A stretch of DNA of 64,000 nucleotides from Eledone cirrhosa (GCA_964016885.1 OZ024745.1:116126001-116190000), one strand, 5' to 3'. Positions 1 through 63,574 are shown, counted from the stretch's first letter. The notes: generated by a model from the sequence alone, not told the origin. Made by a program: numbers and translations.

Positions 1-1900
1 ATCCCTAAGTATTTATAGGTTTGTTCCTGCTCAAGTTCCTTTATGATTGTTTCAGCATCCAATTCAACTGAGTCTGAGTTGACAAGCTTCCCCTTCTTGA
101 AAGTGGCTTTTGCACACTTGTCAAATCCAAACTCCATCCTGATGTCATCGCTAAACGTTTTTACTGTCCGCAAAAGGCCTTCCAGTTCGTCATTATATTT
201 GCAATATAGCTTCAAATCATCCATATAAAATAGGTGGCTTATTTTTTTTTAGTCAATTCTATAACCGTACCCTGTTCTATTAAGTTCGGATGTAAGGGGT
301 ATTAAAGCTATGCAGAAAAGCAAGGGTGAAAGTGAGTCACCCTGGAATATACTACAGTTGGTGTTTATATTCCCCAGTATCCCAGTGGAATGAGACAATT
401 GGAGATTTGTGTTCCATTATGACATATTGTGTTTCAGGAAGTTTGTGATCACAGGTGAGATTTTGAAGATGTCCAGTGATTTCAGAATCCACGAGTGTGG
501 TGTGCTGCCAAGGGCTTTTTTATAATCGACCCATGCAGAATTGAAATTTCTGTGTTTATTATGACAGTTTTCAAGGATCATCCCATTAATCAAAAGTTGA
601 ACTTTGCAACCATATGAACCTCGTTGGGACCCTATTTGTTCAATGGGGAAAAGATTGTTCTCCTCCAAAAACATGTATGCTTTTTCCATGAGAATAGAGG
701 TTAATAGTTTATAAGTGGTGGACAAGCAGGTTATGGGCCGATCGTTTTTTGGATCGTTGGTTTCGTTGTTCTTTGGTAGAAGGTAGGTAATGCCAGTTGC
801 TATCCAATCAGGTGTATTTTTTGGATCTTGCATAGGCCCATTAAACAGCTTGTGAGTGCACGGGAGTGAGGAATGCCAGAATTTTGGCACCTTGTCTCTA
901 CCAGGAGATTTCCATTTATGAGATTTATTGAGTGCTGTCCTTAAGTCCGCTATAGAGATGTCTTGCCACGCTTGTTCTTCTAAATTTGTGTAGGATTTTT
1001 CCAAGCGACTAATCGAATCTACATTAGGATTATATGCCTTCTCATCAGTCCAAATCTTACTCCAGAAGTTTTCAACTTCTTCTATGGACTTCAATAATTA
1101 TTTTTTTCTTCCCTACTTCTATATAAAATGACTTGGCATTGGATGAGAACAACTTATTTTGCCTGTAGAAGATGTTTCGCTTCTCGAATCTACGAATTCG
1201 TTGGGCTTTTACTTGGACTTTTTGTTTCAGAGATTTTTTAAAAAAACTATTGCTTCTCTAGAAGACAGTCCATATGTTCTCTTTAGCTTTCTTACCTTCT
1301 TGGATTTTATATCATTTCCAGCGGTTAACTCACTCAATAAAGATATTTCTCCTCTCATTACGTCAATCTCCTTTTCGATTCTACTCCTCCAAATTGGTTT
1401 ACCTCGAAGGTTCGACTTTTTTTGTTTTTTTTGTGGTAAACAACTTGTTTCAATTACTCTAGCAGATGCATAAATGATTTCATTTAACTCAGTAAGATCA
1501 GGTTCTAGTTCTAGTATGATTTCTTTTGTCACAGAATTACCAATCATTATGTGTTTTCTATTAAGGGCGGTGGATTGGCAGTATCAGTAGAGGGTTTGAC
1601 GCCATGCTTTCCAGCATAGTTACGTCCCTTTATGATCTGAGTTCAAATCCCGCCGAGGTTAACTTTGCCTTTCATCCTTACGGGGTCGATAAAATAAAGT
1701 ACCAGTAATGCACTGGGTAATTGCTGGCCTTGTGCCTAAAGTAGAAACAATTATGTGTTTTCTATTTTGGATTGTATTTGGGAGTTTTTGAAGTGGTTCT
1801 CTATCAATTTCCTTCATAGTCTCCCTGTGTTCTTCAGCAGATGTTTGGTTTTCAATTAGTGTTTCTAAGTCCCTCACCTGGCTATTTTCAGCGGGTTCAA
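1..1900 (-). mobile_element. Degraded R4/Dong-clade (RLE-type) non-LTR retrotransposon: N-terminal region and RT, running off the window start
   Basis: Minus-strand frames give KSPGRDK, RPITCL, Q.GS.RGSYGCK.QL and WVDYKKA (ORF 417-1094), IFQGDSLSP (~325-350) and SHLFYMDDLKLY (~205-240). Frameshifts are present and a SINE interrupts it at 1563-1749. Confidence 0.88.
1563..1749 (+). mobile_element. tRNA-derived SINE (family A), full length, 17-bp TSD
   Basis: A-box-like TGGCAGTATCAG, B box GAGTTCAAATCC, central GCCTTTCATCCTTACGGGGTCGATAAAATAAAGTACC. TSD ATTATGTGTTTTCTATT at 1546-1562 and 1750-1766. Confidence 0.92.
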
Positions 1901-1920
1901 TTATTATTATTATTATAATT

Positions 1921-2105
1921 ATGGTGGATTGGCAGTATCGGTAGAGGGTCTGACGCCATGCTTTGCAGCAAAGAGTTACGGCCCTTTATGGTCTGAGTTC
2001 AAATCCCGCCGAGGTTAACTTTGCCTTTCATCCTTACGGGGTCGATAAAATAAAGTACCAGTAATGTACTGGGTAATTGTTGGCCTTGTGCCAAAAGTAG
2101 AAACA
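1921..2105 (+). mobile_element. SINE family A copy in an (ATT)n tract
   Basis: Same head, body and tail as 1563-1749, with (ATT)n on both sides. Confidence 0.9.
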
Positions 2106-2123
2106 ATTATTATTATTATTATT

Positions 2124-2600
2124 CTTTGAGTCTCAGTCATTGATGTTATTTAACTGGAAAGTTTGTTGAAATGAATATCAAGCCGCTACCTGCAGCCTCA
2201 GATATTCAGGACGTATCGGAGGGTTCTTGCTGTTCCCAGCAAGCATGCCTTTTGAAGTGTTCCAAAAAGCGGGGCTGGACTAATTTTCTTTAATCATCCT
2301 TGGTTAAAGACTGACTTCATGGCAGTTCCAAATCCTGTTTACCTCCCACTTTAAGTCCTGGTATCGATTAATTTTTTCCCTCCCCTTTTCTTGTACTCTC
2401 GTGTCAAATGGGCAAGCTACATCTACAATCACGCATGATCTTTTGTCCTTGTCCAAAACCACCAGGTCAGGCCTATTGTGTTCCAGTTTCTTGTCCGTCT
2501 GTATCCTAAAATCCCATACCACCTTCATCTGATCGTTTTCTATCACCGACTCTATGCTCATACCACTTCTCAGAATGTGGTAAATTGTTTACTTTGCCAG
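2124..2600 (-). mobile_element. 3' end of an R4/Dong-type LINE: restriction-like endonuclease, C-terminus and 3' UTR ending at (TAA)n
   Basis: ORF 2304-2561 reads VWDFRIQTDKKLEHNRPDLVV..IVDVACPFD..K..RYQDL. It is followed by QKACLLGTARTLRYVL, and the sense strand ends in (AAT)n at 2106-2123. Confidence 0.88.
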
Positions 2601-2604
2601 TGGG

Positions 2605-5312: not shown

Positions 5313-5602
5313 ATAATGGGTTCTTATATAGGCACAAGGCTAGCTATTTTGGGGGGAGGTGACAGTCGATTATATCGACCCCAGTGCGTGACTGGTACTT
5401 TATTTTATCGACCCTGTAAGGATAAAAGACAAAGTTAACCTTGGCGGGATTTGAACTAAGATCATAAAGAGCTCAACATATAATGGTTTCTTGTATAGGC
5501 ACAAGGCCAGCATTTCTTTTTTCTTGGGGGGGGGGGTCGATTAAATTGACCCCAGTGCGTGACTGGTACTTTATGTTATCGACCCTGTAGAGATGAAAGG
5601 CG
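5313..5602 (-). mobile_element. Two tandem 3' portions of an older SINE A-related subfamily (poly-C insert before the tail)
   Basis: Repeated GGCACAAGGC..GGGGGG..GTCGATTA..GACCCCAGTGCGTGACTGGTACTTTAT..ATCGACCCTGTA. Confidence 0.75.
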
Positions 5603-6124: not shown

Positions 6125-6162
<38 letters not shown>

Positions 6163-7009
6163 GGTGTGGGAAGGTATGGGTGTGTTTGTATTTATGTTTG
6201 TGTATGTGCATATTTATGTAAATATCTATATTACCTGTATATTCGTTGCTTCTCCTCCCCCCTCTCTCTTTCCCAAAACACACATATGTATTATTATTTG
6301 TAGTCTGCGGAATATAATTTTCTAGGTGATTTAACTCGAAGAGAGCACTCAATAATGGAATTCTTAGTTGATGCATTATGTTATTTGATGTTTACCTTAC
6401 AATTCCAATACATTCTTATAGTTTCCTATATAAATATATAACGTAATTATATTTTCTTGAAAATCGATTGATGTGTCAAAAATATTTCACTGTCTGTCGT
6501 AGAATTAAATTTACAAAATTCATCTTCAGCTATTATATCCAATTTATATTTTTCACAGATTTTAAGACCACTGAAGAGAGTGTATGGTACAAATGATAGA
6601 AAAGAATGTAACATGTATACCATATTCAGTTCAATTTCTGCATATTCAGAGATTTGCATTTTTCCCTCACTTCAATAGATTCGTTTTGGTCATCAAGTTT
6701 GCCAAATATTTTGAAAGGTGTTTTACGTAAATGAATGAAATGAGAAAAATCGTTGATTTCAATTTCAGTACTCTTATACTGTTATAACTTTAGAGAAAGA
6801 TACAATCATCGCAAATTAAACCAAAAGGAAAATATCTATAAGGCTCGTTAAGTCTTATAGCTCTTATTGATATTCCTTTCAACATCGAAAACATTTTAAT
6901 AAGCTACCTTAATAATTTTGGAAAATGTTACAACACAAAATATCTGATATACAAATTTCTCTGAAATATTACATGCAGCTTCTATTAAACACCATAGAGA
7001 TGTAATAAT

Positions 7010-7196
7010 TGTTTCTACTTGTGGCACAAGGCCAGTATTTACCCAATAGATTGCTGGTACTTTATTTGATCGAACCCGTAAGAATGAAAGGCAAAGTTAA
7101 CCTCGGCTGAGTTGAACTCAGATCGAAAAGGCACGTAACTCTATGCTGCAAAGAACGGCGTCAGATCCTCTACTGATACTGCCAATCCACCACCCT
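7010..7196 (-). mobile_element. SINE family A, full length, 15-bp TSD
   Basis: TSD TAGAGATGTAATAAT at 6995-7009 and 7197-7211. Confidence 0.9.
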
Positions 7197-7210
7197 TAGA
7201 GATGTAATAA

Positions 7211-8119
7211 TCTATATATATAAAACTGAGGATGTCTGTCTATGTTTGTGTGTGTGAGTTTGAATCCCTAAACCTCGAGAAGCACCCAACCGACTGTTTT
7301 CAAATTTACACATGTAATACTTATGTTTCAGGGAGTGCTCTGAGCAAAAGAAAAATTCAAATTTTCAATGCTCTAGGGACCGCATTAGTCGATTTAGCGA
7401 TCTCTCTCTATAATTCTTAGTCTTTCTCTTTTTAGATAGATACTTACATATAACGTCGCGCACATATAGTATCTGTCTGTATGTCTGGCTGTCTGCATTA
7501 CGTCACTTTCCTGAGGATGTCTGTGTGTGTGTCTGTGAGTTTGAATCCCTAATACTCGAGAAGTACCCAACCGACTTTTTTCAAACTTTACATGTGTATT
7601 ACTTGTTTCAGGGAGTGTTATGCACATACAAAATTCAACTTTTTCATCCCCTAGGTGAAAAACTGCATTTTTCAGGTTTTTAGGGGTTTCTTTGAGGCGT
7701 TACGTCAGACTAATTTCCTTGAAATTGTAACTATGTATTAGTCAGTCTCTTCTTCATACCGTGAGCAAAGAAATTCCAACCTTTTTATGGCCTAGGGCCA
7801 GCATTAGGTGAAAAACTTCATTTTTTCAGCTTTTTAGGGCTTTTTTAAGGGGTCACGTGTAGCCGATTTCCCCGAAATTTCAAGGCATATTATGCACATA
7901 AAAAAAATTCATTTTCTTGATCCCCTAGGGCCCGCAGTAGGTGAAAACCTACATTTTTACTGCTTTATCGAGGAAAATCTTAAAGATTATCCAGCCATCA
8001 GAGTATTCAGTTTATTTTCTTTACATATTGTCCAGGCATGCAGTTTTCCACGATTAAGTCTGTTGGCGGCCCGCGTTCCAAAATACCTTATCCACTGCAA
8101 CGCCGGGTACAACTGCTAG
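7211..8119 (+). mobile_element. Non-autonomous Helitron-type element
   Basis: 5' A|TCTATATATATAAAA and 3' GCAACGCCGGGTACAACTGCTAG|T. Inserted at AT with no TSD. The 5' block is internally duplicated (~7226-7380 vs ~7512-7655). Confidence 0.8.
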
Positions 8120-10939: not shown

Positions 10940-11710
10940 TTATCGAGAAAAAAAACGTAGCAGAACCACGCCCCCAACTGTCGATCTACTGTCATGTGAC
11001 AGTCGCTTAATTACTGAGAGAAAGGATACAGCAATATTCTTACTACAATCACATTTAGCAATACCACCACAAACATGAACTGTGACAGCAACAGCGAGAA
11101 CACTAACTTTAAAAGAACTAATGACAACATCAACCACAGCAGTAACAAACAAAAAACAGGCAGCAGAAACCATGACAACAAAAACAACGAAATTAACACC
11201 ACTAACAAGAATATGAACAGCGACAGCAACAACACCGAGAACAATAACAGTAACTGAAACAGCACCAACAAGAACAATAATAGCATTACCAACAACAAGA
11301 AAGCTTTCACTGCGGCAGCAGCCAATAAGAGGCCATGTTTCAGCGTGGGCCTCACAAATAAAGATGAAAAGTTGGCCCAGGCCTTGAAACTCATTAAACA
11401 AGAGCAAATCTGAGCCAACTTAACTTTCCCGGCAGAAACTATTGAAGAAGTGGAGCGTAGAATGGTGAATTTCAGCAAAAACAAAGAGAGCGGCTTTAAT
11501 TGCCCAGGCAGATATTGAGCCGCGCTGAGATGCATCAGCGATGACAAGGAGTACATAGCGAGGGGCAGACAGTATGGCACCATTTCGGTGTTGTTTAAGT
11601 TAGAAGCCCTCGCTATGAATCATGCTATGACACCTCGTAAAACCAGCAAGGTCATTATGTACCCTCCCACATAGGAAAACGAACAGCTCGTGTCCGCATT
11701 CCGACGTACT
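10940..11710 (+). mobile_element. Diverged Tx1/L1 ORF1 5' relic
   Basis: Asn/Thr-rich leader, then a stop-interrupted frame GRQYGTISVLFKLEALAMNHAMTP that aligns by eye with KYGTVVVFFGTQQEAREHSITP in the downstream element's ORF1. Confidence 0.6.
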
Positions 11711-11878
11711 TCACAAAGGTTTGTTGTTTTCAGTTGTTTCAAATTGCGAGTTATGGAAAATGTTTGTTGTTAAGTGTTTATAAGTTCACATATATTGCTT
11801 ACTGAAAAGGACACTTAATAATATTGGTGCCTTGAGCCCAAAACTTAAACATTTATAATTATCAAACAAAAACTTTCT

Positions 11879-13909
11879 TTGAAAAAAAACACGGACGGCT
11901 TTCAGCCACACAAATCTGACAGCCTTCCTAACAGACTAAGATCTCCCACCACCTCCACCACCATTGTAAACATTACTACGATTGCCAATACTAAAAATAT
12001 AAGCAGTGGCAATAATTTAAATTTGTCACATGCAGACATTCATTTCCCGCCATTACCAATAACTGCAGGTGTTGAAGCCACCACCCCACCACCACAATGT
12101 CAAAAAGAAACACCAACACCACTGATACCAACACCACCACCACCACCTTCACCACCACCACAGCGACAAAAAAAATTATTATTTCGTGACATCGAAATGG
12201 ATTCACCGAGAATCGACTCTTCCACGCCGAACACCATTGACACCACCACCATCACCACCACAACTGAAACTAAAAATAATAATTAAAAAAAACAATAACA
12301 ACAACAGCAACACAGCAAGAATGAGAATAACAACAACAACATCAACACCAGCGCAAAATAAAATGTGTCGTTTGCCAAAGCAGCCATGAAAAGCGAAAAA
12401 AAAAAGAGTTAAGCCAGAATGAATTAAATGAAGCCAAGCGAATGGTAAAAAAAAGATGGGTACAGGTTCAGCCCCACCCCTCCCCCATCTAATAAAATGG
12501 AGCATCGGCGCATATGCACCGTGTCATATCGGACGATAAACACAAAATCACGCCGAGTGGAATGGACATCCGAGTTCCAAATACAAAAAGCTTTGGGACA
12601 TGTGTAGGCGAAAAAACCCCACATCAGACGTTGGCAGAAATATGGAACTGTGGTCGTGTTCTTTGGAACACAACAGGAAGCCAGAGAGCACTCCATTACC
12701 CCATTAAGAAGTGACGACTTCACACTTGTCCCAAGCTATTGTGGTCAGAGACTCGTGAAGATCAGGGTGACCCACGTTCCACCGGCCATCGAAATTCCCT
12801 GGCTAATCGCTGCCGTTCTCGCCAGCATCGAGACCAACACGAAAATAATCGAAGTAACAAAGGAAAAGCAGGAGAACTGGTCCGGATCTGGGAAGGAGCT
12901 CCTGATCCAAGCGGACCAAAAGAACATTGAGGAAATTCCAGAGGTGATAGACCTCACTGACGGCAGCCACCTCACCGTAATCGTTGAGGGTAGAAGGCCG
13001 AGGTGTGTCGTTTGTGGTGAAGGAACCCACATAAAGACTTTCTGCCCTGAGGCTAAAACGTTGAGGCCGCCTCTCTTACCCACACCAGTGACTCAACCAT
13101 CGACACCACCAGCAGCAGAAATGGCAGCAGCAACTGTAGCAGCAACAACAGAAGCAACTGTAGCAGCAACAGTAGCAAAACCAACACCCCCACCAACCAC
13201 CGCGCCAGAACAAGCACCAGCGCCTCCACATCCACCACGCCACAACCAAAACCAACGCCCGTAGAGGATTTTCTACACCCCGACCTATCGCAACTGGAGA
13301 CAGATTGTGACGACGAGGAGTGGGAAACTGTATCAGGAAAACAGTAAAAGAGAAAAAGAACCCCAAAAAGAAAAAAATCCTCTTCCTTCCCCCTCCAAAA
13401 ACAAAATACAGGGGGAAACAAATAAACTAACAAACAAAACAGTTAGGACAGCTATGCCACCATCGACATCAGCATTGCCAACCCCATCACCACAAACACC
13501 AACACCATCATTAACCCCAACACCATCATCACCAACACCACAAACGTCACCAAAAAGCAAAACAGAATCAAACCCAAAACAAACGCAAACAAAACAAAAC
13601 AACCAAAACGATACACACTACACAGCATTAAATTTGAACAACAACCAATTATTACACTACATCCAACACAACACCAGCATCACAGAAAAAGACTACACAA
13701 CACCCAAAAAATTCATACCAGCTCCACACATACAAATCACTCGCATCATACAGAAAACGTACACGACACTAACACAAAAATTCCCCAAAGACATCGGAGA
13801 CTTCCAACAAACACTCTCCAGGAAAATGTATAAGGACATCCTTCCGGAGGAGGCCACGAGCAGTGAGAAGGATGGAAAAACCATCCTACCCCTACGAAAA
13901 GTGAGGTAA
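11879..13909 (+). pseudogene. Tx1/L1 ORF1 (gag-like, RRM-like region plus CCHC zinc knuckle), frameshifted
   Basis: CVVCGEGTHIKTFC fits CX2CX4HX4C in ORF 12650-13264. Pro/Thr-rich linkers; the last frame ends TAA at 13907-13909. Confidence 0.8.
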
Positions 13910-13944
13910 GTGGTCTTTCCCATCTTTTTCCACTCCTTTTCAAC

Positions 13945-16900
13945 ATGACCTCAATCAGAATAGGCAGCATAAATGCGCTTGGATTTGGATCGTCATTGAA
14001 GTAGGGCCACCTTCTCAACGACCTCAGGTGACTAAACATAGATGTGGTGGCCATCAGCGAGACCGGATTCTCCGAAGCACGGGCCTTCGCACCTATCTTC
14101 GGCGGCTGCGATGTGTACGCATCTCCCAGCCATCCTGGATCGGGGGGAGGAGTAGCTGTGCTTTTTCGGAGAGGTTTGGATCTCGCCATACGGGCCATCT
14201 CCCTGGATCCAGAAGGTATTTTGGTGGTGCTGGACGTCACCAGCGGAGACGGGCAAGCTTTCAGGCTAGTGGCCGTCTAAGCACCGACAGGATCATTGCA
14301 GCCTGATTTCTTCCTGCGTCTGGAGACCTTTCTTGGAACGTCCCGCTCTTTAGGGTTAGTGGGCGACTGGAACGACATCCTAGATGCACGCTGGGAGTGT
14401 GTAGGATTAGCGGATAGGGGAGGAGGGTGCAAGAGCCTCACCAACCTGCTCAGGCGTTTTGACAGGTGCCGATTGGATTTCCCGAATGTGCCAATGTGGA
14501 CTTGGACAAACCGCATCGGGTTATCCAGATCATATCTAGATAGAGTATTTTGTAGGGAAATAGATACGTCTAGCATAGGCTGTCCACAATTCAAGATATT
14601 CAGCTACACGATCCACAAATTCGTGATCTGTGTGGTTGCTTAGATTGGCTTCATAGACAAGGACCCAGCTACTGGAAGCTAAACGCGTCATTAATAGCGC
14701 GCAAGGCCTACAGAGACCGGATTAGCGAACAAGTTAAGCGGGCCTTGACGGGGGTCATCGTCAACAACAAATGGTGCTTTGCTCTGAAAGAGCGATTAGA
14801 ATAGACTCCATTAAGTTTAGTAAGGCTTTAGCAATAGAGAAAAATAGAGTAGAGGGAGAACTAGTTAGAAAATTAGACGAGGTGCTTAGCAAAGGTATCG
14901 CGACCGACGTACTTGCGGCGAAATTGGCCCTTGACCAATTCTTCAATGCAAAGCACGAAGGCTGCGTTGTCAGAGCTATGGTGCGTGCTCTCAGACACAA
15001 GGGGACGAAAGCCGTTCAATGCGCCCGAGTGGCGGAGGCGCGTCGTGGCAACAAAGTCACGATCCGATCTTTGGTGGACCAGGACGGGCGCATGCTACTC
15101 GATCCCGGGCAAATGTGTGAAGCTTTACAGCGACACTTCGCTCAGCTGTTCGGGGGCAGCGGCGGGCCGGATCGAGAGATGGACTTTAGTGCCTACCTCG
15201 ACGGACTGCCGCGACTCTCGACCACTGAGGCGGAGTGTTGCGAAAAGTGTTGCGATAACAGCAGCTGAAATGCGGGAGGCAATGCCTGGCTGCACAATGG
15301 GTAAATCGCCTGATTTGGATGGTCTGAAATATGAACTTTACGTGCAGATGCCAGTTTTGTTCGGAGGCCTCTTGCCGGACGTCTACTGCAACTGGCAACA
15401 GAACGGGGGAATTCCCAGCTCTGTGAGCCGAGGAGCGGTGGCGCTCCTGAGAAAAGATCCGAACAAGGGGGATAACATAGATAATTTCAGGCCCATAACT
15501 CTGCTAAACACAGAGTTCAAGATTTTGGCCGAGGTTCTAGCAAAGAGGTTGGTGGTCTGGTGGGAAAGGTGCAGACATTCGCCATTCCAGACAGGTCCAT
15601 CTACGACAACCTCCACCTCTTGCGATACATCGTGGAGAGGGTAGCTAGGGAACTTGGCATGGGTGGTTCCTTCATCAATTTAGATCAGTCGAAAGCTTTC
15701 GATAGGGTCGACCAACGGTATCTGGCGGCAGTCCTGAGGGCGGCTGGCTTTGGACCCGTCTTCAGAGGCTGGATCGTTGCCATGCACAGCGACATCTGCT
15801 CTGTGGTGAAAGTGAACGATTACCTTTCCGAACCGTTCAACATCATGCGCTCGGTCCGCCAAGGATGTCCCCTCTCGTCCCTCTTGAACGTATTGATTCT
15901 CGAGCCATTACTGCACAAACTGGAGACGTTGAGGGGGATCCGTGTCAGCATATTCGGACGATGTCACCGTAGTGGCGTCGAACGCCAAACACATCCAGGC
16001 GATCGGCACTACACTAAGATAATACGAAGCGGTGACAGGAGCAATGAACATCCAGGAAAAGTCGGTGGGCCTGCAGCTCGGCACCTGGAGAGGCAGGTCC
16101 ATGCCGTCCAACAGCGTCGTCGGGCGCTGGAGGGACGGACCGGTTAAATTGCTAGGGGTCTGGTTCGGTCCAGACCTCCAGACGGACAAACACTGGGACT
16201 AGATGACGAGCAGGGTGGTTTCTCTCACCCAGAAATGGGCGGAGAGGAAGCTATCCTTGAAAGGACGAGGTGGCTAACGCGTACATCGCGTCCGTCATCT
16301 ACTACCGCCTGACTGTCGTGCCTTGTCCTAAGCCTCGCCTCACTGCGCTGAAGCGTTTGCTCTGTAGCTTATTGTGGAGGCGACGCGCTCCGATGGTCAG
16401 GCGGTCCATCTGCTGTCAACACCCGCTACGTGGAGGGCTGGGCGTGCCGTGGCTGATGATGCGCAGACACGCGCTCAGGCTACGACATCACCTCTTCCTC
16501 GACGGTGATCAGGTGTGGTCGCCGTTTGCTAGACGCGTCTTTCCCCAGCTCGTCTCCTTGACGGAGCTGCAGTCCTGGATCAAGCGAAGACCGAGAGGGA
16601 TCGCTTGGAGACTGGAATGTCTTCAGGCGCTCACAGCGCTCGACCAATTGGGTAATATGATCGGTGGAAACTCCACCTTGGCGTTCTATAGAGGATTAGT
16701 GGAGGGGAAGAGCGACGACGTACTTGGCGAAACTCTAGGCGTCGACGAAAATCAACTAGCCAATCTCTTCGGAATAACTTTCGGGCCTGGGCCTATGGAC
16801 AACTTCCCTGGCCTGGCAGTGCTTCCGAGGAGCTTTGCCAGTTCGGGATAAACTCTACAGGCATGGAGGTGCCGTTAGCCAGGCATGTCCGAGATGCGCG

Positions 16901-17230
16901 AAGGGCGACGAAACCGTCCTGCACGCACTCGTCCAGTGTCCGAGCATTGCTGACTTGTGGGTTTATGTCGAACACCTACTATCGCGTATAGGACGGATCC
17001 AGGTATCAGCTGAGTCCATCGTGATGAGTGCCCCGCCCGCTTCCTTTAGCCGGGAAGGGCAGGCAATTTTTATCTGTCTGGTTGCCATGGCGAAAGAGAC
17101 AGTGTGCTGGACTGGTTTGAAAAAGCTGCAGACGAGCACTTACCTCTTCGGTGATGCCCTGATTAACTTTTTCAAATTTCAAGGTAGGGAGGTAACTGCT
17201 CTCTTCCCAGCATTTTGTTGAAAGATGGGT
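13945..17230 (+). pseudogene. Tx1/L1 ORF2 (APE endonuclease, RT, C-terminal zinc finger) with multiple stops and frameshifts
   Basis: MTSIRIGSINA, AISET, GDWN, YLDRVF, YWKLN, KSPDLDGL, FRPITLLN, LDQSKAFDRV, SVRQGCPLS, SAYSDDVT, GGLGVP, CPRCAKGDETVLHALVQC. Confidence 0.92.
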
Positions 17231-17582
17231 GAGAGAGGCAAAAATGGCCTCTGAGTATGTGCCTGTAAATTGGAGGTGGAAAACTGGGAGAGGGCACTTG
17301 TCCTAGTGGTCAGGGTCACCGTGGCTTTTTTTAATAGGCTTTCTCCACGAATGTCCCTCGGAAGTCTCCACCCTATTGGGGAATTTTTCAATGTTTCTTT
17401 TTTTGTTACATCCTCTGTTTCTAGTTTTTTTTACACGCAGAAATGCCCATTTTGTACCGTCCTGTATTGTCCTGTACTGTCCTTAATGTCTACTTTGTGT
17501 AAACCCTTGTGGTTAATAAAGAAATCATTATTATTATTATTATTATTATTATTAATAATAATATTGTTATTATTATTATTCG

Positions 17583-17752
17583 ATCGGTAGAGGGTCGGAT
17601 GCCATGCTTTGACGCATTGAGTTTACGGCCCTTGCCATTCTGAGTTCAAATCCCGCCGAGGTTAACTTTGCCTTTCATCCTTACGGGGTCGATAAAATAA
17701 AGTACCAGTAATACACTGGGTAATTGCTGGCCTTGAGCCAAAAGTAGAAACA
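17583..17752 (+). mobile_element. SINE family A inserted in the (ATT)n tail of the Tx1 LINE, 11-bp TSD
   Basis: TSD ATTATTATTCG at 17572-17582 and 17753-17763. Confidence 0.9.
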
Positions 17753-17764
17753 ATTATTATTCGC

Positions 17765-45938: not shown

Positions 45939-46118
45939 TGTTTCTACTTTAGGCACAAGGCCAGCAATTACCCAGTGCATTACTGGTACTTTATTTTATC
46001 GACCCCGTAAGGATGAAAGGCAAAGTCAACCTCGGCGGGATTTGAACTCAGATCGTAAAGGGACGTAACTATGCTGGAAAGCATGGAGTCCGACTCTCTA
46101 CCGATACTGCCAATCCAC
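45939..46118 (-). mobile_element. SINE family A, 8-bp TSD
   Basis: TSD CACATAAT at 45931-45938 and 46119-46126. Confidence 0.9.
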
Positions 46119-46269
46119 CACATAATAAAATAAATATGGTTTTATAAAGATATTTTCCATTTATTAATATTATTATACATTAATGATACTGCGGAGTAAT
46201 TTTGAAGAATGGTTCTAATCTATTGTGAAATTAACTTTGTTGAATAATCAACAAACCATATAACTCATT

Positions 46270-46923
<654 letters not shown>

Positions 46924-47018
46924 CACTACTCCGGAGTAACCAAACCAACCTGCGCACTTCGTCGAGTGCTCCAGCCTGCATACTGAGGTGTTGGTATACA
47001 ACCAACATAAACTCAAAA

Positions 47019-47064
<46 letters not shown>

Positions 47065-47174
47065 TTTAGTTCCCCAGTGAATTAACAACCCAACAAGGAA
47101 CTGGGCATATCAGAGTATTGACAATATCATACACCTAAACAACATATGTACTTGTCTATACCATACTAATTCAA

Positions 47175-47229
47175 ACTGCCTGAAGAGGTTACAGCCAAAG
47201 ATGGCTGTCACTGAAATATATATAGCAGT
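47175..47229 (+). ncRNA. Minimal type I hammerhead ribozyme motif (H2, third copy)
   Basis: ACTGC-CTGAAGA-GGTTACAGCCAAAGATGGCTGTCACT-GAAA-TATATA-TA-GCAGT-AATAAA. Confidence 0.8.
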
Positions 47230-47276
47230 AATAAACGAAGCTAAATTTTAATCATTTGACTTTATTTAACTTTATT

Positions 47277-47354
<78 letters not shown>

Positions 47355-49464: not shown

Positions 49465-51790
49465 TATCTTTAACACTTTCAACCTTGTCCACCACACAAT
49501 CTCTTTCGCCATTGCCACCAGGCAGATGAAAACCGCCTGCCCTTCCTCCTCAAAGGAAGACGGCGAGACCATCTGCACAATGGACTCAGACGATAATCGG
49601 ATCAGTTCTACATGCGATAGCAACTGTTCGACATAGCTCCACAAGTCAGCAATGCTCGGCACTGAACGAGTGCGTGCACGACGGTTTCGTCGCTCTGCGC
49701 GCATCTCAGACAAGCTCGGTGACGGCACTTCCGTGCCTGTAGAGCTTATCTCGAACCGGCAACGCTCCCCGGTAGCACTGCCAGGGCAGGGATTTTTGGA
49801 AGTTATCCATAGGCCCTGGGCTAATAGTTCTCCGGAAGCGAGCAAACAGCTGATCTTCTTCGACGCCCAGGATCTCTCCGAGAACGTCCTCGTTCATCCC
49901 CCTCCACTAGTTCTCTGTAGAATGCCAAGGTGGATGTTCCACCGATACTGGTGCCCAGCTGGCAGAGGTTGCTGAGCGCCTGGAGACATTCCAGTTTCCC
50001 AGCGCTATTCCTCGGTCTCTATTTGACCCAGGACTGCAGCTCCGTCAAGGACTGGCGAACGGCAACCACACCTGTTTACCGTCAAGGAAGCACCAGAGAT
50101 GTCGCAGCCTCAGCGCATGTTTGCGCATCATCAGCCATGGCATGCCTAGTCCTCCACGCAACGGGTGTTGACAGCAGATGGATCGTCTGACCATGGAAGC
50201 GCGTCCCTTCCACAAAAAGCGGAAGAGGAGGCGCTCCATTTTGGTGAGAGTTGGGCTGGGGCAAGGGACGACGGTGAGGCGGTAGCAGATGACAGACGCG
50301 ATGTACGCATTCGCCACCTCCGCCCGGCCTTTCAGGGACAGCTTCCACTAGGCCCATTTCTGGGTGAGGGAGGCCACCCTGCCCATCACCTCCCTCCAGG
50401 TTTTCTCCATCTGGAGGTCCTGTCCAAACCAGGCCCCGAGGAATTTAACCGGTCCGTCCGTCCAACGCCCGACGACGCTGTCGGACGGCATGGACTTGCC
50501 TCTCCAGGTGCCGAGCTGCAAGCCCACCGACTTTTCCTGGTTTATTGGACGGCTTTTGTCCCCTCGTGTTTCAGAGCATGCGCTCTAGCTCTGACAACGC
50601 AACCTTCGTGTTTTGCGTTGAAGAATTGGTCGAGTGCCAATCTCGCCGCAACCACGTCGCGATGCCTGTCCTAAACGCCTCTTCTAGCTTTCTGACTAGA
50701 TCTTCCTCTATTCTATTTTCCTCTATCACTAGTCTTTTGTTAAACCTAATCGACTCTACTTTAATTGCCCTTTTCAGGGCGAAACACCACCTGTTGCTGA
50801 CGACCGCTCTCGTCAACGCCCGCTTAACTAATACGCTAATCCGGTCTCTGTAGGCTTTGCACTCCGGGTAAGACACGTTCAGCTTCCAGTAACCCGGTCC
50901 TTGCCTATGAAGTTTGTCTATGTCGATCTCACAGATCACAAATTTGTGGTCTGTGTAGTCGACTATTTTAAATTGTGGACAACTTATACTAATCTTAACT
51001 TATTCTCTGCAGAATACCCTATCGAGATACGATCTGGATGACCCGATGCGGTTTGTCCATGTCCACATTGGCGCATTCGTGTGATCCAGTCGATACCTGT
51101 CAGACAGTTCAAAACGTCTGAGCAGGTTGGTGAGGCTCTTGCACCTTCCTCCCCTATCCACTAGCCCCACACAATCCCAGCGTGCATCCAAGATACCGTT
51201 CCAGTCGCCCACTAACTCTAAAGAGCAGGGCGTTCCAAGAAAGGTCTCTAGACGTCTGAAGAAATCTGACCGTCCTGTCCCTGGCGGGGCATAGACGGTT
51301 ACTAGCCAGAAAGCGTTGCCTTCGGTGCCGCTTACGTCCAGCACCACCGACTTACCTTCAGGGTCCAGGAAGATGGTCCGTATGGCGAGAACCAAGCCTT
51401 TCCGAAACAACACAGCCACTCCTTCCCCCGCTCCCGGGCGGCTCGGAGATGCGTAGACCTCGTAACCGTCGAAGATCGGTGAGAAAGCTTGCGTTTCGGA
51501 GATTCTCGTCTCGCTGATGGCCACCACATCTATGTTTAGTGACATGAGGTCGTTAAGCAAGTGACCCTGCTTCCAAACCGAGCTCAAGCCACGCACGCTT
51601 ACACTTCCGATCCTGAATACGGCCATGTTGGATGAGGAACGGGGCAGGTGAGAAAGGATCACTTACCTTTATCGTCTGGTGAAGGGACCGTTTAACCGTC
51701 CCTTCGGCTGGTCGTCGGCTCTTCTGTGAGTATATCCGAGTATACTCTCCGGTTGGGTGTCTATCCTAGGTCTCTGAAATCACCAACTCC
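49465..51790 (-). mobile_element. Tx1/L1 LINE copy: ORF1 end, ORF2 endonuclease and C-terminus, with the RT core deleted
   Basis: MAVFRIGSVSVRGL..AISET..GDWN..YLDRVF and GPGYWKLN. At ~50545 it jumps from HEGTKAVQ to QEKSVGLQLGTW, then ANAYIASVICYRL and GALPVRDKL. Confidence 0.9.
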
Positions 51791-53577
51791 TTGTCCACCA
51801 TACAATCTATTTCGCCGTGGCCACCAGGCTAATGAAAACTGCCTGCCCTTCCTCCTCCTTAAAGGAGCATGGCGGTGCTATCTGCATAATGGACTCAGTC
51901 GATAACCGGATCCGTCCTACACGTGACAGCAACTGTTCGACATAGCTCCACAAGTCAGTACTCCTCGGGCACTGTACGAGTGCGTGCACGACGGTTTCGT
52001 CGCCCTGCACGCATCTTGGAGAGGTTCGGCTGACGACACTTCCGCACCTGTAGAGCATATCTCAAACCGGTAACGCTCTTCGCTAGGACTGCTGGGCCAG
52101 GGATTTCTGAAATTTATCCATAGACCCTGGGCTGAAAGTTATCTTGAAGAGAGCGAACAGCTGATCGTCTTCTAAGCCCATGGTCTCCTCGAGAACGTCG
52201 GCAATCTTCCCCTCCACTAGTCCTCTATAGAACGTCGAGGTTGATGTTCAACCGAAACTAGCGCCTAGCTGGTAGAAGGCTGTGAGCGCTTAAAGATATT
52301 CCAGCTTCCGAGCACTATGCCTCACGGTATTTTCCTGATCCAGGACTGCAGTTCCGTTAATGAGACGAGCTGAGGAAAATATGTCTGGCAAACGGCGACC
52401 ACACATGTTCACCGTCAAGGATGCACCACAGATTTCGCAGCTTCAGCGCCTGTTTGTGCTTCATCAGCCACGGCATGCCCAGTCCTCCACGCAATAGGTG
52501 CTGACAGCAGTTGGATCGTCTGACCATGGGAGTACGCCCCATCCATAAAAAGCGGAAGAGGAGGCGCTCCATTTTCGGCCGGGGCAAGGCACATCGCTAC
52601 TTTCGCCCGACCTTTCAGGGATAACTTTCTCTCAGCCCATTTCTTCATCTGGGGGTCCGGACCGAACCAGACCCGAGCAATTTAACCGGTCCTTCTGTCC
52701 AGCACCCCACGATGCTGTTGGATGGCATGGACTTGCTTCTCCAGGTGCCTAGCTGCAAGCCCAACAACTTTTCCTGGTTTAACTTTGATCCTGTTGTTGC
52801 TTCGTATTCCTTGAGAGCCGTACCGAATATCTGGCCATGTTTGGTGCTTGACACCATCACGGTGACGTCGTCGTAAGCCGATACGGATCTCCCACATCCC
52901 AGTCCGCGTGGCACGCCTCCCATCGCCTCCAATGTGTGCAGTAACGGCTCGAGGGCCAATACGTACAAGAGGGACGAGAGGGGACAACCATTGTGGACCG
53001 ACCGCATGATGCTGAACGGCTGTGACTGGTGACCGTTCACCCTCACAACTGAGCAGATGTAGTTGTGCATCGCAGCGTTCCAACCCTGAAAACGAGCCCG
53101 AAGCCGGCCGCCTCGAGGACCGCCGCCAGGTACCGATGTTCAACCCTATCAAATGCTTTAGATCGATCCAAATTGATCAGGCCCGAACCCTGCCAGGTTC
53201 TTTAACCACCCTCTCTATGATGTATCGCATGAGGTGGAGGTTGTCGTGGATCGATCTCTATGTAAGATGGTGCATGTCTGCGCCTTTCCCACCAGATCAC
53301 AAACGACAAGCCCCAATCTCGTTGCTAACACCTTGGCCAAGATCTTGAAATCTGCATTTAGCAGAGTTATGGGCCTCAAGTTGTTTATACGCCCCATGTT
53401 CGGGTCTTTTCTCAACAGTGCCACTGCTCCCCGGCTCACAAAGCTGCGAATACTCCCGTTCTGCTGCCAGTTGCTGTAGATATCTGACAAGTGGTCACCG
53501 AACAAGTCTGGCATGTACGCATAAAGCTCGTAGGGCAGACCATGCAAACCTGGCGATTTACCCCTCGTGCAGACATC
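51790..53577 (-). mobile_element. 5'-truncated Tx1/L1 LINE copy (RT to zinc finger)
   Basis: GKSPGLHGLPYE, LRPITLLNADFKIL, GCPLS, SAYDDVT, GGLGMP, PRCVQGDETVVHALVQC. The 5' junction abuts a sense-strand (ATT)n tract at 53578-53600. Confidence 0.9.
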
Positions 53578-53717
53578 AATAATAATAATAGTAATAATAA
53601 ATACAATCATTTCTTTTAGTTGGTATGTGGTTCAAAATGACTGAGAACAGCACAAGGGTGAAAAAATAAGAACTGTAGGTTATTTACATCGTTTGAATGG
53701 TTTGGTACACTAATAAT

Positions 53718-54158
53718 TATTTCTACTTTTGGCAAAAGGCCAGCAATTATCCCAGTGTATTGCTGGTGCTTTATTTTATCGACCACGTAAGGATTAAAGG
53801 CAAAGTTAACCTCGGCGGGATTTGAACTCAGACCATAAAGGGCTGTAACTCCATGTTTACACTAATAATTGTTTCTTCTATTGGCACAAGGCCAGCAATT
53901 ACCCAGTGCATTACTGGTACTTTATTTTATCGACCCCGTAAGGATGAAAGGCAAAGTTAACCATGTTTACACTAATAATTGTTTCTACGTTTGGCACAAG
54001 GCCAGCAATTACCCAGTGCATTACTGGTACTTTATTTTATCGACCCTGTAAGGATGAAAGGCAAAGTTAACCTCGGCGGAATTTGATCTCAGAATGGCAA
54101 GGACCGTAACTCTATACGTCAAAGCATAGCGTCCGACCCTCTACCGATACTGCCAATC
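53718..54158 (-). mobile_element. Stack of three SINE family A units (one near-full, two 5'-truncated)
   Basis: CACTAATAAT at 53708, 53860, 53970 and 54159 separates the units. Confidence 0.88.
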
Positions 54159-54429
54159 CACTAATAATATTAAGTAAACATTAATAGATATTTAATAATA
54201 AAGAGATTCTAACAGTACAGTAGAAAATAGTTTCAATAGTCATTAGTTTAATTCAGGGAACACGAGACATTCCAGAGAAGTTGAACGATATGATTTCTCC
54301 CAGTTCTTGTTGCCCGTTTACAGCCGTATAATTAATTTGTAGCCATTTCGCGAGAAGTACAATTCGGAAAATAACTCCACCCAAGTAAACGATTTACATA
54401 AACACGCGTAAATATTAACAACAAAGTAC

Positions 54430-56293: not shown

Positions 56294-56336
<43 letters not shown>

Positions 56337-56584: not shown

Positions 56585-56755
56585 AGTAGATTAGCACAAT
56601 CAGACACCATGCTTCGCAGCATAGTGTTATGGCCCTTTAAGTTCTGAGTTCAAATCCCGCCGAGGTTAACTTTGACATTCATCTTTAAAAGGTCGATAAA
56701 ATAAAGCACCAGTAATGCACTGGGGATAATTGGCCTTGTGCCAAAAGTAGAAACA
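56585..56755 (+). mobile_element. SINE family A, diverged
   Basis: B box, central domain and tail CCTTGTGCCAAAAGTAGAAACAATTAT. Confidence 0.8.
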
Positions 56756-56757
56756 AT

Positions 56758-57158
56758 TATTAAATAATATGATATTGATAAACTCAACTGCTTCAGAGAC
56801 TGCCCAAATAGGGATTGCTAGGAGGAGAATATATGCCACGATATGTGCGATTTGCAGGACAGCAAGATATAAAGAATATCCGCAATTAATGAGAGAAATA
56901 ACAATATTCCTCTCTTTATAACCATTCCGTTTCCTTTCTAAACATACAACAGCAAAAGCGACATATTGAAACAAACTCTAAATTTCCAATCGGGAAAATA
57001 AAAATACAAACATAAATGCATTCATACAGTCACCCCCCCCCCCCACACACACACACATAGTCACACACACACATATATATATATATGTATATATAAATAC
57101 ATCCCTATTTGGGCAGTCTCTGAAGCAGTTGAGTTTATCAATATCATATTATTTAATA
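56758..57158. repeat. 58-bp perfect inverted repeat pair (56758-56815, 57101-57158)
   Basis: TATTAAATAATATGATATTGATAAACTCAACTGCTTCAGAGACTGCCCAAATAGGGAT and its reverse complement. Confidence 0.88.
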
Positions 57159-59151: not shown

Positions 59152-59154
<3 letters not shown>

Positions 59155-59212
<58 letters not shown>

Positions 59213-59915: not shown

Positions 59916-60230
59916 AATTTAATATAGTTTGAGATAAATCACTGGTTATCAGTTTCTTTTATCTCCATGTATAGTGTTTAAATTTAGCGTTTGAGATTCT
60001 GTGTGTGTTTCTATGAGAGGGGGGGGGGGTGTCTGGCAAATCTGTTGCCAAGGCGTATATATGTATAACACGCTATTTCAAACTTGTCAAAACCAAAAAC
60101 CGTTGTTTAGCTCATTGGCGCAAATCAGCTGACGATAAGTTGGGAAAATGTTGGCCTTAATTCTTGAAAACATTGTTATCATTTAGTTTCGTTTATTATA
60201 GTTATTTAAAATCATTATGTTATTGTTGTC

Positions 60231-60937
60231 AGGGCGGTGGATTGGCAGTATCGGTAGAGGATCGGACGCCATGCTTTGCAGCACAGTTACGTCCCTTTAC
60301 GGACTGAGTTCAAATCCACCAAGGTTAACCTTGCTTCTCATCCTTACGGGGTCGATAAAATAAAGTACGAGTAATGTACTGAGTAATTGCTGGCCTTGTG
60401 CCTAAAGTAGAAACAATTATTTTATTGTTGTTAGAGAGTTGGATTGCCAGTATCGGTAGGGCGTTGGACGCCATGCTTTGTAGCATTGAGTTACGTCCTT
60501 TTACGTTCTGAGTTCAAATCCAACCGAGGTTAGCTTTGCCTTTCATCCTTACGGGGTCGATAAAATAAAGTACCAGTAATGAACTGGAGTCGGTTTAATA
60601 GACTCCCCCCCCCCAAAGTTGCTGGCCTTGTGCTTATAGTAGAACCAATTATCATTATTACGTTGGTTTCATCCTTACGGGGTCGATAAAATAAAGTACC
60701 AGTAATGCACTGGGTAATTGCTGGCCTTGTGCCTAAAGTAGAAACAATTATTACGTTGTATGGCAGTTTCGGTAGAGGTTCCAACGCCATGCTTTGCAGC
60801 AAAGAGTTACGACCCTTGCCATTCTGAGTTCAAATCCTGCCGAGGTTAACTTTGCCTTTCATCCTTACGGGGTCGATAAAATAAAGTACCAGTAATACAC
60901 TGTGATAATTGCTGGCCTTGTGCCAAAAGTAGAGACA
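60231..60937 (+). mobile_element. Stack of four SINE family A units of different subtypes and lengths
   Basis: TSD-like ATTAT(G/T)TTATTGTTGT(C/T)AG at 60214 and 60416; ATTATTACGTT at 60654, 60747 and 60938. Confidence 0.88.
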
Positions 60938-61699
60938 ATTATTACGTTTTGCGTGTGGATACCGATGGGCTTTCATTTATTCTTATTATGTGCACATAAA
61001 ATATGCTTTACACATTTAGATTAAAACAAACATATATATTGTATGAAATCCCAGGTTAACTTCTTCCTTCGTTCAAATATATTAATACATTTTCTAAACG
61101 AGGGGCGTAATTAACTTTATATTTCTAAATATATATATGTTTGTGTCGAGTTATTTGCTATCGTATTACTATAACTACCACCTCCAATTCCTTATCACTT
61201 TTCAACCCTTCTCTTTTCATAGTACATCTAAACTTTCTTTTGTTTGTAGTCACCACCGTCACCACACTGCTTAATCAAACTGGTTTACTGTTTGTCTCTG
61301 CCTTTCTATAATTTTCTCTCATGTAGCACAATGCATCAGATAGCGGACAGCTATAAAGGTTAGGGAAAAAATATTCTTACAAAAAAAGTTTTCATGTAAA
61401 ATCCAATATTGATCTATTAATCCGAATATGTTTTTATTAAGAACATTTATGGTACATTTATGTTTAAATTCCTATCCGAACAAAATGAGATATTCTGCAA
61501 GACTTCGTATATATGTCTTTATTTGATTTTATAGATGTATCATGTCTTTTTTCACGAGTGGAAAAATTGAATGATTGTATTACAATGATTTAGGTATGTA
61601 TTTTATAGCGCTTCACAACATGGTGAATTATAGCTAACTTTGCTAATTAATGACTGTTCAGATTCCGCTGTTTTTACTGATATGGCAATAAATTCCATG

Positions 61700-62460
61700 T
61701 ACACTGCCTAATGTACCTGTGATTATCGATTCACTGAGGAAGCGTTAAATGCTCTCTCTCTCGGTTAGAAACAGCAAGCAATCTAATGCAATTCACATGT
61801 CATCTTAGTTGTGAATAGTGCGATCTTAGATGGTGAATAACGAAACTAAAAGAAGTAGTTGGAACACGGCTGGAATGCTTGTGAACCTTATCGACCAAGA
61901 TTAAAAAATGATAAATCAACCACAAAACCAACATAAATATTTTTATCAACGATAGTACTACACCAAATAGTTTAAAAGTTTTAAAGAATAGTACAGTCAA
62001 ATTTACTAAGCTTTTGCCGTTGGAATTTCTTGTGCTGTTTTTAATGCTCACGAAACGCGACTCCCCTGGCAATTACAGTGGAATTTGGTCTTGTAGAAGG
62101 ATGTATGCTCATTGTATACACAGGCCCTCCCCGAGACCGTTGTGATTTATGTGGTTAACTTATCGCTTGGACAGTTGCACATCGTGTGTTATATAAAAGC
62201 CATGTGCAGGTATTCCCAGAGGTAATACCTTCTGCGGAGAACACGATAGAGCCAAGTCGTTATTGTAGAGCTTAATGGTTATTGAAGTGGAGACCAGTGT
62301 TCATGAATACTTCAATAGTAAAAGCCTATAAACAGACAACCTCGAACAGCAAAACCATTGTAAGAGTCATAGAACACGCGGTGAAAGGAACCAGCATCTT
62401 ATAACGTCCAGACTCCGGAGAGTGGGCGACTTCATGCTAGTGAAATGTTGGGTTTTTCTT
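61700..62460 (-). mobile_element. Possible ancient Tx1/L1 endonuclease relic
   Basis: Weak in-order echoes of the intact copies (GKSLVNL, LVDKV, AVSNR); heavily decayed. Confidence 0.3.
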
Positions 62461-62563
62461 TGTAAGTGGTGTAGAAGGTTTGTGAGATGGTATTTCAATT
62501 ATCCGGTCAATAACTGTTAACATAGATTGCAACAATATAATAGATAAATATTATTATATATAT

Positions 62564-62951
62564 GGGCGGTGGATTGGCAGTATCGGTAGAGGGTCTGACA
62601 CCATGCTTTGAAGCAAAGAGTTACGGCCCTTTATGGTCTGAGTTCAAATCCCGCTGAGGTTAACTTTGCCTTTCATCCTTACGGGGTCGATAAAATAAAT
62701 TACCAGTAATGTACTGCGTAATTGCTGGCCTTATGCCAAATGTAGAAACAATTATTATATATATGGGCGGTGGATTGGCAGCATCGGTAGAGAGTCGGAC
62801 GCCATGATTTCCAGCATAGAGTTATGCCCCTTTACGATCTGAGTTCACATCCTGCCGAGGTTAACTTTGCCTTTCATCCTTACGGGGTCGATAAAATAAA
62901 GTGCCAGTAATGTACTGGGTAATTGCTGGCCATGTACCAAAAGTAGAAACA
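62564..62951 (+). mobile_element. Head-to-tail dimer of two distinct SINE A copies with a triplicated 17-bp target
   Basis: ATTATTATATATATGGG at 62550-62566, 62751-62767 and 62952-62968. Confidence 0.92.
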
Positions 62952-63574
62952 ATTATTATATATATGGGGATCATATAATATTTAATTATATCAGCATCTC
63001 AAATTATGGGCCAGTGTAATCAAAGAAACCTAATATTTTGAAGTATGAGTATTTCTTTTGATACTTGCTTCGCGCGAATCCCTTCTGAATTCTAGGATAC
63101 ATTTAACTTAGTTGGCCTTCATTAAAAAACTATATACAATGACGTCTATGAAATGAAATATGTAAAAAGAAGACGCAAGAAATTTTATAAACAAGTAATT
63201 ACCCGGAGAAATGAGTTTATAGAATGAGAAATAATTACGAACGAAACATTGTCATTTTAAACTATTGAACACGTCATATTAACTATAAAGTATCAGATGT
63301 AATGCTGAAGATTCATTTAAATTGAATATTTCTCGTTTTAATGCCTGATATCAAACATGTCAGGAATTACAATATAACAGGAATTACAATATAATTGGAA
63401 AATAGAAAGAAGAGAGGTTCAATTATTTATATAGATATTTATTTCTAAATTAAGGTAGAGTATAAATTATTCATTAATGTATGAACATTTACACACATTC
63501 TGAAGCACACATACACATAAAATATATATAAAGACCTACCAACGTAGAAAAAAATACAAGCCTATATATATTTT

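Follow-up and report, generated by a model that had tools for sequence, protein, structure and literature searches.

Target duplications of an octopod SINE begin at ATTAT, with an L1/Tx1-group LINE as its candidate partner

The 64,000-nt stretch of the Eledone cirrhosa genome analyzed here (GCA_964016885.1 OZ024745.1:116126001-116190000, single strand; hereafter the window) carries about 25 pieces of a short interspersed element (SINE) of about 190 nt, as found by BLAST. The target site duplication (TSD) made by this SINE starts at ATTAT and no tail is added to the element, a rule of which we are nearly certain. On balance, we think it probable that the SINE inserts at ATTAT in one orientation and register by target-primed reverse transcription (TPRT), carried out by a long interspersed element (LINE) of the L1/Tx1 group that shares its predicted 3' hairpin. 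An earlier note on this DNA had claimed that every readable TSD of the SINE begins with ATTAT, and the nine TSD pairs it cited proved correct in letters and coordinates, minus-strand copies being cited by their low coordinate. Across the loci counted below, 10 of 16 have an outer TSD that begins with ATTAT and none has one with any other start.

The SINE occurs in two types, short and older long, which have a common 3' end. With generic RNA polymerase III box motifs, an A box was found in 11 of 11 full-length copies and a B box in 10 of 11, the two lying 64-67 nt apart, and by these internal boxes at its 5' end the SINE is tRNA-type. It is short, non-coding, multicopy and 5'-truncated in part, has TSDs of 6-22 nt, and is covered very deeply by reads in four sequencing runs. 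The GC content of the window is 35.5% (AT about 64%), and simple repeats are plentiful.

ATTAT at the insertion sites

The 3' ends of the SINE were located with an anchor that joins AGAAAC to the 3' stem-loop and contains no ATT. All 22 ends found in this way are followed by one base and then ATTAT, the last base after the SINE at end 56756 possibly being supplied by the terminal repeat of an adjoining miniature inverted-repeat transposable element (MITE). When arrays were merged, 16 loci with a 3' end were counted, and an outer TSD of 6-22 nt beginning with ATTAT is present at 10 of them. Three further loci are consistent with the rule: 19223; 1921-2105, where (ATT)n flanks the SINE on both sides; and 5317, where the TSD is an inner one whose left copy is the end of an older SINE. 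ATTAT itself has a background frequency of 0.37% of window positions. In a tail-blind test, the ATTAT behind each end was skipped, the bases following it were sought upstream, and the five bases preceding the best match were read. ATTAT preceded the left copy in 15 of 22 SINE ends compared with 11 of 454 non-SINE ATTAT sites (Fisher p=1.3e-16), although six of the 15 are non-independent in that their left copy is a neighboring SINE end or an inner spacer. The earlier note had proposed enrichment of the motif over background as a check on its claim, and this comparison comes out in its favor.

The junctions have the same form throughout. At 10 of 10 sites the SINE ends in GTAGAAACA with the TSD directly next to it and no backward extension of the repeat. 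Zero extra bases stand between element end and TSD at these sites, which bears out the earlier statement that no poly(A) tail is present.

Two insertions in reading frames point to the state of the target before the SINE arrived. The SINE at 1563-1749 (locus 1546-1766, + strand) has a 17-nt TSD (1546-1562 and 1750-1766) and interrupts, in antisense, the open reading frame (ORF) of an R4/Dong-like LINE. The TSD encodes NRKHI, which ends the ORF piece before the SINE and begins the piece after it. A homologue search with the ORF piece adjoining this site returned nothing, and homologues of the reverse transcriptase (RT) piece were used instead. In the alignment (79 long homologues tried, best 30 of 74 matched), both NRKHI copies map to the same ungapped columns, so the target sequence at 1546 was present once before insertion. 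The second case is a newly found 14-nt stub of the SINE 3' tip (32388-32401, - strand; locus 32382-32407), which turned up when the other 455 ATTAT sites were searched with a profile. It is identical to 16 of 17 SINE tips at 13-14 of 14 positions, it has a 6-nt TSD, ATTATT, on both sides, and its chance probability is about 5e-6. The stub splits a + strand ORF that we take to be Penelope-like, with a presumed GIY-YIG endonuclease; one frame stops at the left ATTATT and another resumes at the right. Pfam gave no family for the three Penelope-like pieces around the stub. Several fragments of Penelope-like RT and endonuclease lie on both strands of 30100-32600, and one of them bears the stub.

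The earlier note had also asked that empty sites hold ATTAT, and they do where the empty state can be reconstructed, that is, at the ORF-embedded 1546 site and at the stub. No empty site was recovered at the DNA level; among the joints listed for reads over 11500-19900, none bypasses the SINE at 17583. Judged from these interrupted frames, ATTAT is part of the target DNA from before insertion.

The target is a word of five bases. Agreement with (ATT)n, counted by position over the 10 sites, runs 10, 10, 10, 10, 10, 5, 4, 4, 4, 3, 2, 4, and a T at +6 is present in 5 of 10 sites, which is not above background (p=0.31). Because the match to (ATT)n drops after the fifth base and +6 stands at background, we read the rule as five bases rather than a microsatellite, and microsatellite targeting as the rule was rejected. 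Two of the 10 sites continue as ATTATTAT. At position -1 the 10 sites have C5 T4 G1 A0, compared with T208 A142 C53 G47 at other ATTAT sites; C is enriched (p=0.003), as are pyrimidines (p=0.036), both being post hoc tests. The strand that would be cut reads ATAAT and then mostly a purine, an arrangement like the pyrimidine-purine step at which the human L1 endonuclease cuts (PMC13295347; PMC8565326; here and below, published systems are described from the available portions of the papers cited).

A candidate partner LINE

A near full-length, broken LINE of the L1/Tx1 group lies at 12187-17526 on the + strand, its start being approximate. Its ORF1 has a CCHC knuckle, and its ORF2 has an apurinic/apyrimidinic (AP)-type endonuclease (EN) and an RT. 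The LINE pieces in the window matched Exo_endo_phos (E=3.5e-11) and RVT_1, and full-length homologues have the order EN, RT and zinc finger with a C-terminal zinc motif. One full-length homologue, P0137, matched human L1 ORF2p at 3e-83 compared with R2 at 7e-16. By domain content and homology, the LINE belongs to the L1 group (L1/Tx1). The earlier note had called it a Tx1 LINE; the L1-group part of this label is borne out by the domains and the human L1 ORF2p match, but no Tx1-named member is found in the 20 homologue clusters looked up. The two best named homologues of a LINE endonuclease in the window come from Argonauta hians and Octopus sinensis, as would suit an octopod host. A protein of Octopus sinensis annotated as "tectonic-3-like" (P0003) has a stretch 61% identical to the LINE endonuclease, and this is probably a gene model that includes a LINE fragment.

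The LINE adjoins the same repeat as the SINE, in the same polarity. Its 3' end is followed by (ATT)n at 17527-17571 (+ strand). Two rearranged pieces of related L1/Tx1-group LINEs at 49477-53577 (- strand), 75-80% identical to the 12187-17526 copy, keep no 3' ends, and sense-strand (ATT)n at 53578-53600 (- strand) stands directly at the 5'-truncation point. Thus both readable junctions of these LINEs (2 of 2) abut sense (ATT)n, as the earlier note had stated.

The closest likeness between the two elements is in their 3' ends. That of the LINE (17502-17531, + strand) consists of a predicted 4-bp stem, a CTTGT loop (17506-17510), 12 nt and ATTAT, the same layout as in the SINE. The window holds 129 CTTGT words, of which 18 have ATTAT 15-17 nt behind them; these are 17 SINE ends and the LINE 3' end, and the distance is 16 in every case. 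When the 25 nt before the ATTAT of the LINE were compared with SINE ends, they scored 14.2/25, where the mean over 455 non-SINE ATTAT sites is 6.6 (sd 1.9); of these sites only the SINE stub ranked higher. The 3' ends of SINE and LINE align over 35 columns without a gap. In this alignment 90.8% of stem cells pair, three of the four stem pairs change on both sides, and the covariation score was reached by 0 of 500 shuffles. The link to a Tx1-type LINE that the earlier note had drawn is strengthened by this common predicted stem-loop in exact register, and we regard the L1/Tx1-group LINE as the likely partner of the SINE.

Read depth adds some detail at both ends of the LINE. Depth between 17421 and 17449 rises 7-fold in run X1, 20-fold in X4 and 1.7-fold in X7, and falls to 0 in X6. 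The jump within 17440-17526 gives a hint only of another abundant repeat that shares the last 80 nt of the LINE. Multi-copy sequence lies just upstream of the LINE at 11500-12060. A possible 9-nt TSD of the LINE at 12175 is neither confirmed nor excluded by these data: repeat-level depth continues upstream, though one deep X4 contig would start near 12177 if it is colinear.

Possible mechanism and alternative explanations

The TPRT account that we prefer would run as follows. The ORF2 protein of the L1/Tx1-group LINE would bind the SINE hairpin (4-bp stem, CUUGU loop), and its AP-type endonuclease would cut the bottom strand on the 3' side of ATAAT, slightly favoring sites with a purine beyond the cut. 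Once freed, the ATAAT end could pair with AUUAU 16 nt behind the loop and prime copying at a fixed base, and a second nick 6-22 nt downstream would set the TSD length. Selection would come mainly from the 5-bp pairing, whose position the hairpin fixes, and to a lesser degree from the endonuclease. Human L1 is reported to prime efficiently on four matched terminal bases, priming adding to nuclease preference (PMC3649969). The earlier note had suggested that the endonuclease nicks at ATAAT and/or that the RNA 3' AUU end anneals to the target; the target word and the register are compatible with this, but sequence cannot separate the two. More tentatively, the CUUGU hairpin may have acted as a ruler with which an L1/Tx1-group LINE drove the expansion of octopod SINEs, reverse transcription being confined to places where a nicked ATAAT is matched by five bases of the RNA.

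Several observations weigh against the preferred account, beyond the missing Tx1 name. Three of the 16 loci (34919, 42671 and 56756) have no readable TSD, and one of these is young. Only a single LINE 3' end is present in the window, its identity to the SINE tip is modest (14/25), the LINE copy at 12187-17526 is broken, and its own TSD at 12175 is only suggested. The covariation signal comes mostly from the LINE row and one old SINE, and relatedness can inflate such a score; when 51 nt were folded, the minimum-energy fold was the hairpin in fewer than half of the 22 SINE ends. The -1 bias depends on 10 sites, and an eleventh, the short TSD at 19223, has A. Finally, LINE families other than L1/Tx1, among them RTE and CR1, are reported to be active in O. 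vulgaris (PMC13282606).

Among the alternatives, the one that survives best is that pairing alone sets the target, with loose nicks in AT-rich DNA of which only those exposing ATAAT would prime; it is compatible with the same partner LINE. The five fixed bases are those that follow in the element itself, and past them the match shows no excess, as the +6 count given above illustrates. The base at -1, however, lies outside the primer and looks non-random, if weakly so, and we consider pairing alone possible but rather unlikely.

A second alternative accepts the ATTAT rule and assigns it to another LINE (RTE, CR1/L2 or similar) that is not present in the window and from which the SINE would have its 3' tail. 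CR1 and RTE are the prevailing partners in known SINE/LINE pairs (PMC3747384), the activity of such families in O. vulgaris suits this idea, and so does a tip identity of just 14/25 between SINE and LINE. Against it stand the exact register and the compensated stem common to the SINE and the L1/Tx1-group end. The RTE signature, in which a T directly precedes the TSD and a T-run stands about 10 nt upstream (PMC13295347), also fits poorly: -1 is T in 4 of 10 sites and C in 5 of 10, a small sample, though T is present at -9 and -8 in 7 of 10 and 6 of 10. A driver of this kind seems unlikely to us.

It is less likely still that the endonuclease alone is specific for ATAAT and that the RNA end merely came to match, an idea that lies on the same axis of nuclease versus pairing. 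Many Tx1-clade elements are target-specific, a choice attributed mainly to the endonuclease (PMC4494074), and the sharp drop in agreement after the fifth base would suit such an enzyme. By itself, however, it does not explain an invariant register in which no bases are added or lost at 10 of 10 sites.

The R4/Dong-like LINE in the window must also be considered as a driver. A 5'-truncated piece with RT lies at 1-1898 (- strand), with (AAT)n before it on its own sense strand, and a 3' end that carries a restriction-like endonuclease motif lies at 2124-2588 (- strand), with (AAT)n behind it, again on its own sense strand. The motif, PD..D..K..KY, which is C-terminal, occurs both in the piece in this window and in 64 of the 79 long homologues; no AP endonuclease was found in the three homologues scanned. 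With its RT, C-terminal restriction-like motif and (AAT)n junctions, the LINE at 1-2588 has the features expected of R4/Dong by sequence. Two R4/Dong-like pieces stand head to tail around one (AAT)n run at 1899-2123, and the SINE at about 1921-2105 (locus 1899-2123, + strand) entered this same run, from its sense an (ATT)n run, in the opposite orientation. The LINE thus adjoins the same microsatellite as the SINE, and Dong elements target (TAA)n in molluscs (PMC7998251) and are active in O. vulgaris (PMC13282606). At both of its junctions (2 of 2), however, the LINE has (AAT)n on its own sense strand, which is the SINE target in reverse complement, and comparison of its 3' end with the SINE tip gives 6.9/25, a background level. 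The R4/Dong-like LINE and the SINE are two systems that use one repeat with opposite polarity, and mobilization of the SINE by this LINE is already largely refuted and very improbable. That ATTAT is simply the SINE's own tail, with the pattern an artefact of AT-rich DNA and TSD picking, would agree with ATTAT following each SINE end whether or not a TSD is readable and with a 64% AT content, but is hardly credible given that ATTAT also stands in the left copies, across the element, and that two sites lie in reading frames that held ATTAT once.

SINE loci, arrays and related systems

The remaining loci with a single SINE vary in age and state. Readable TSDs were found at 6995-7211 (- strand; 15 nt from ATTAT), at 17572-17763 (+ strand; 11 nt, the SINE being slightly 5'-truncated and lying at the end of the ATT run of the LINE), at 37401-37613 (+ strand; 22 nt with one mismatch), at 41164-41368 (- strand; 11 nt) and at 45931-46126 (- strand; 8 nt). 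An old 5'-truncated SINE at 19219-19313 (- strand) has a TSD of 5-6 nt, (A)ATTAT, and a compensatory stem pair. The loci whose TSD is unreadable are an old long-type SINE at 34776-34967 (+ strand), a young SINE at 42667-42850 (- strand) that differs by 1.7% from the majority of copies and ends in ATTAT, and a 5'-truncated SINE at 56600-56760 (+ strand) with a MITE at its 3' junction.

Other sequences have settled at or near these junctions. A perfect 25-nt tandem duplication at 34914-34967, from the 3' end of the old long-type SINE, may record an insertion that aborted with hardly any cDNA made, or may be the product of slippage. At 7211-8119 an element that we presume to be Helitron-like from its terminal features, with a TC and TA-rich start and a CTAG end, begins at the last base of the upstream TSD copy and sits between A and T at the SINE TSD edge. 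The MITE-like element at 56757-57155 has terminal inverted repeats of about 58 nt and lies in the SINE 3' junction. Self-comparison also revealed inverted-repeat pairs at 25486-27521 (467 nt at 86%) and 46409-47345 (279 nt at 98%), which are probably DNA transposons.

SINEs stand head to tail at several loci. Two older long-type pieces stand head to tail at 5313-5601 (- strand), where spacer and flank both begin with ATTAT and match over about 14 nt with one mismatch. Three units at 53708-54168 (- strand) have ATTATTAGTG at the start of every boundary; four units at 60214-60948 (+ strand), one of them long-type, have ATTAT-initiated spacers and an outer TSD of 16 nt with one mismatch; and 62550-62968 (+ strand) reads TSD-SINE-TSD-SINE-TSD. 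Three arrays have TSD-like spacers. In the 62550 array, three identical 17-nt copies surround two SINEs that differ at 22 of 184 positions. In the 53708 array the two inner spacers agree perfectly over 19 nt and exceed the outer TSD in length, a pattern that fits successive insertions at the end of the first element. Each insertion leaves two ATTAT copies, and under the five-base rule the site could be hit again, by which head-to-tail arrays would grow. Recent segmental duplication was rejected as the origin of the arrays: neighbors are not closer than random pairs (25th-71st percentile) and four of five pairs have no private change in common, although 80 nt gives this comparison little power.

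The reads carry the same arrangement beyond the window. All 15 of the listed top joints (of 4027) run from a SINE end back into a SINE, across four runs from four studies with three organism labels, and for this reason SINE arrays look common. Summed SINE-to-SINE joints were found in 345 contigs in X1, which may be the window's own sample, 309 in X4 and 8 in X6. Among the sequencing runs listed as containing the sequence, none was an RNA run.

Relatives of the SINE were sought through its parts. Its head, scanned over 62540-62980, gave nothing in Rfam up to E=5, and ARAGORN found 0 tRNA genes in the window. A 27-nt pattern from the central core, putatively the Nin domain of the Nin-DC/Deu superfamily, recurs at no fewer than 120 metagenome loci, in unrelated SINE-like repeats whose heads and tails differ from those of this SINE. 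The core-sharing repeats (L001-L120) come from another animal and combine the same central core with different heads and C/T-rich tails, mostly without long TSDs; no copy of the SINE family itself was present among these loci of the metagenome contigs, their tails being different. A scan with the SINE pattern found 0 matches in viral contigs and 0 in prokaryote genomes. As a rough control, with heuristic windows, 0 of 8 flanking repeats of at least 8 nt at 42 metagenome core-sharing loci begin with ATTAT.

Several known systems share parts of this arrangement. In Alu and other poly(A) SINEs mobilized by mammalian L1 (TT|AAAA; snap-velcro priming; PMC3649969, PMC13295347), as in the SINE described here, the TSD begins with bases that match the RNA 3' end, the first nick is at the left edge of the TSD, here predicted to lie between T and a purine, and a few matched bases are enough. 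Unlike Alu and L1, the octopod SINE has no poly(A), no added tail, the word ATTAT and a fixed register, and whereas L1 recognition is relaxed, it has a predicted 3' hairpin in common with a LINE. The crocodilian pair SINEU and Tx1-Mar is similar in that a SINE and a Tx1-type LINE have a common target preference and often stand in tandem (PMC4494074). SINEU differs in having snRNA heads, poly(A) tails, a Mariner transposon as target and a partner deduced from the target only (PMC4494074), whereas the octopod SINE has a tRNA-type head, a 5-nt genomic word and a common 3' hairpin. Kibi, Koshi and crocodilian Tx1 families, which target (TC)n, (TTC)n, (TTCC)n and (TTTC)n (PMC4494074), also place a Tx1-type LINE at a simple repeat; here, by comparison, the repeat is (ATT)n and the SINE needs only one ATTAT. 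In the stringent SINE/LINE pairs UnaL2 and UnaSINE, and LINE1-1_ZM and ZmSINE2 of maize (PMC3472496, PMC1636434), both partners end in a 3' stem-loop whose loop and 3'-flanking bases are conserved while its stem varies with compensation, as seen in our alignment. In Bov-B and Sauria SINEs with the Tn-TA signature, the first TSD base likewise correlates with the 3' microsatellite of the element (PMC13295347). These differ in that one or two bases are informative, together with a T-run farther upstream, and in that their targets rarely resemble the 3' repeat (PMC13295347), as opposed to five invariant bases identical to the element end. The tRNA-type head with A and B boxes is also found in the octopus SINEs OR1, OR2 and OK and in Nin-DC/Deu and CORE SINEs (PMC4824008, PMC4758252, PMC8967140), while the central core recurs in SINEs of another animal.

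Within cephalopods, octopus tRNA-Core and tRNA-Deu SINEs have been named, with no target or partner LINE given in the available text (PMC8967140, PMC4824008, PMC4758252). In O. vulgaris, SINEs account for 11.6% of the genome, most of the recently active families being unclassified (PMC13282606); active Dong-R4, L1-Tx1, CR1 and RTE LINEs are reported there alongside 893 unclassified active SINE families, with no analysis of targets or partners in the portion available (PMC13282606). In a table of 58 SINE/LINE pairs, Tx1 does not appear, its five mentions in the available text lying outside it (PMC3747384). A literature search found no paper on this ATTAT rule, most subscription papers, Repbase and supplements being outside its reach. 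The strict, tailless five-base rule appears to be new, although the kind of mechanism is already known, and a predicted hairpin shared with an animal L1/Tx1-group LINE appears new as well.

A strict five-base rule would explain the landing sites of these SINEs, their head-to-tail piling and their positions at ATT repeats, and it would allow precise boundary calls even for 14-nt abortive insertions. If an animal L1/Tx1-group LINE has its hairpin in common with the SINE, stringent 3'-end recognition would reach past the L1 examples from plants and algae. Because the junction is tailless and fixed in register, the question of nuclease choice or RNA-DNA pairing becomes directly testable through five bases. 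If the hairpin does act as a ruler, the target would be written in the RNA, a tail would never be added, and each insertion would seed further targets; one 5-nt rule would then have placed a large share of the genome and built its SINE arrays.

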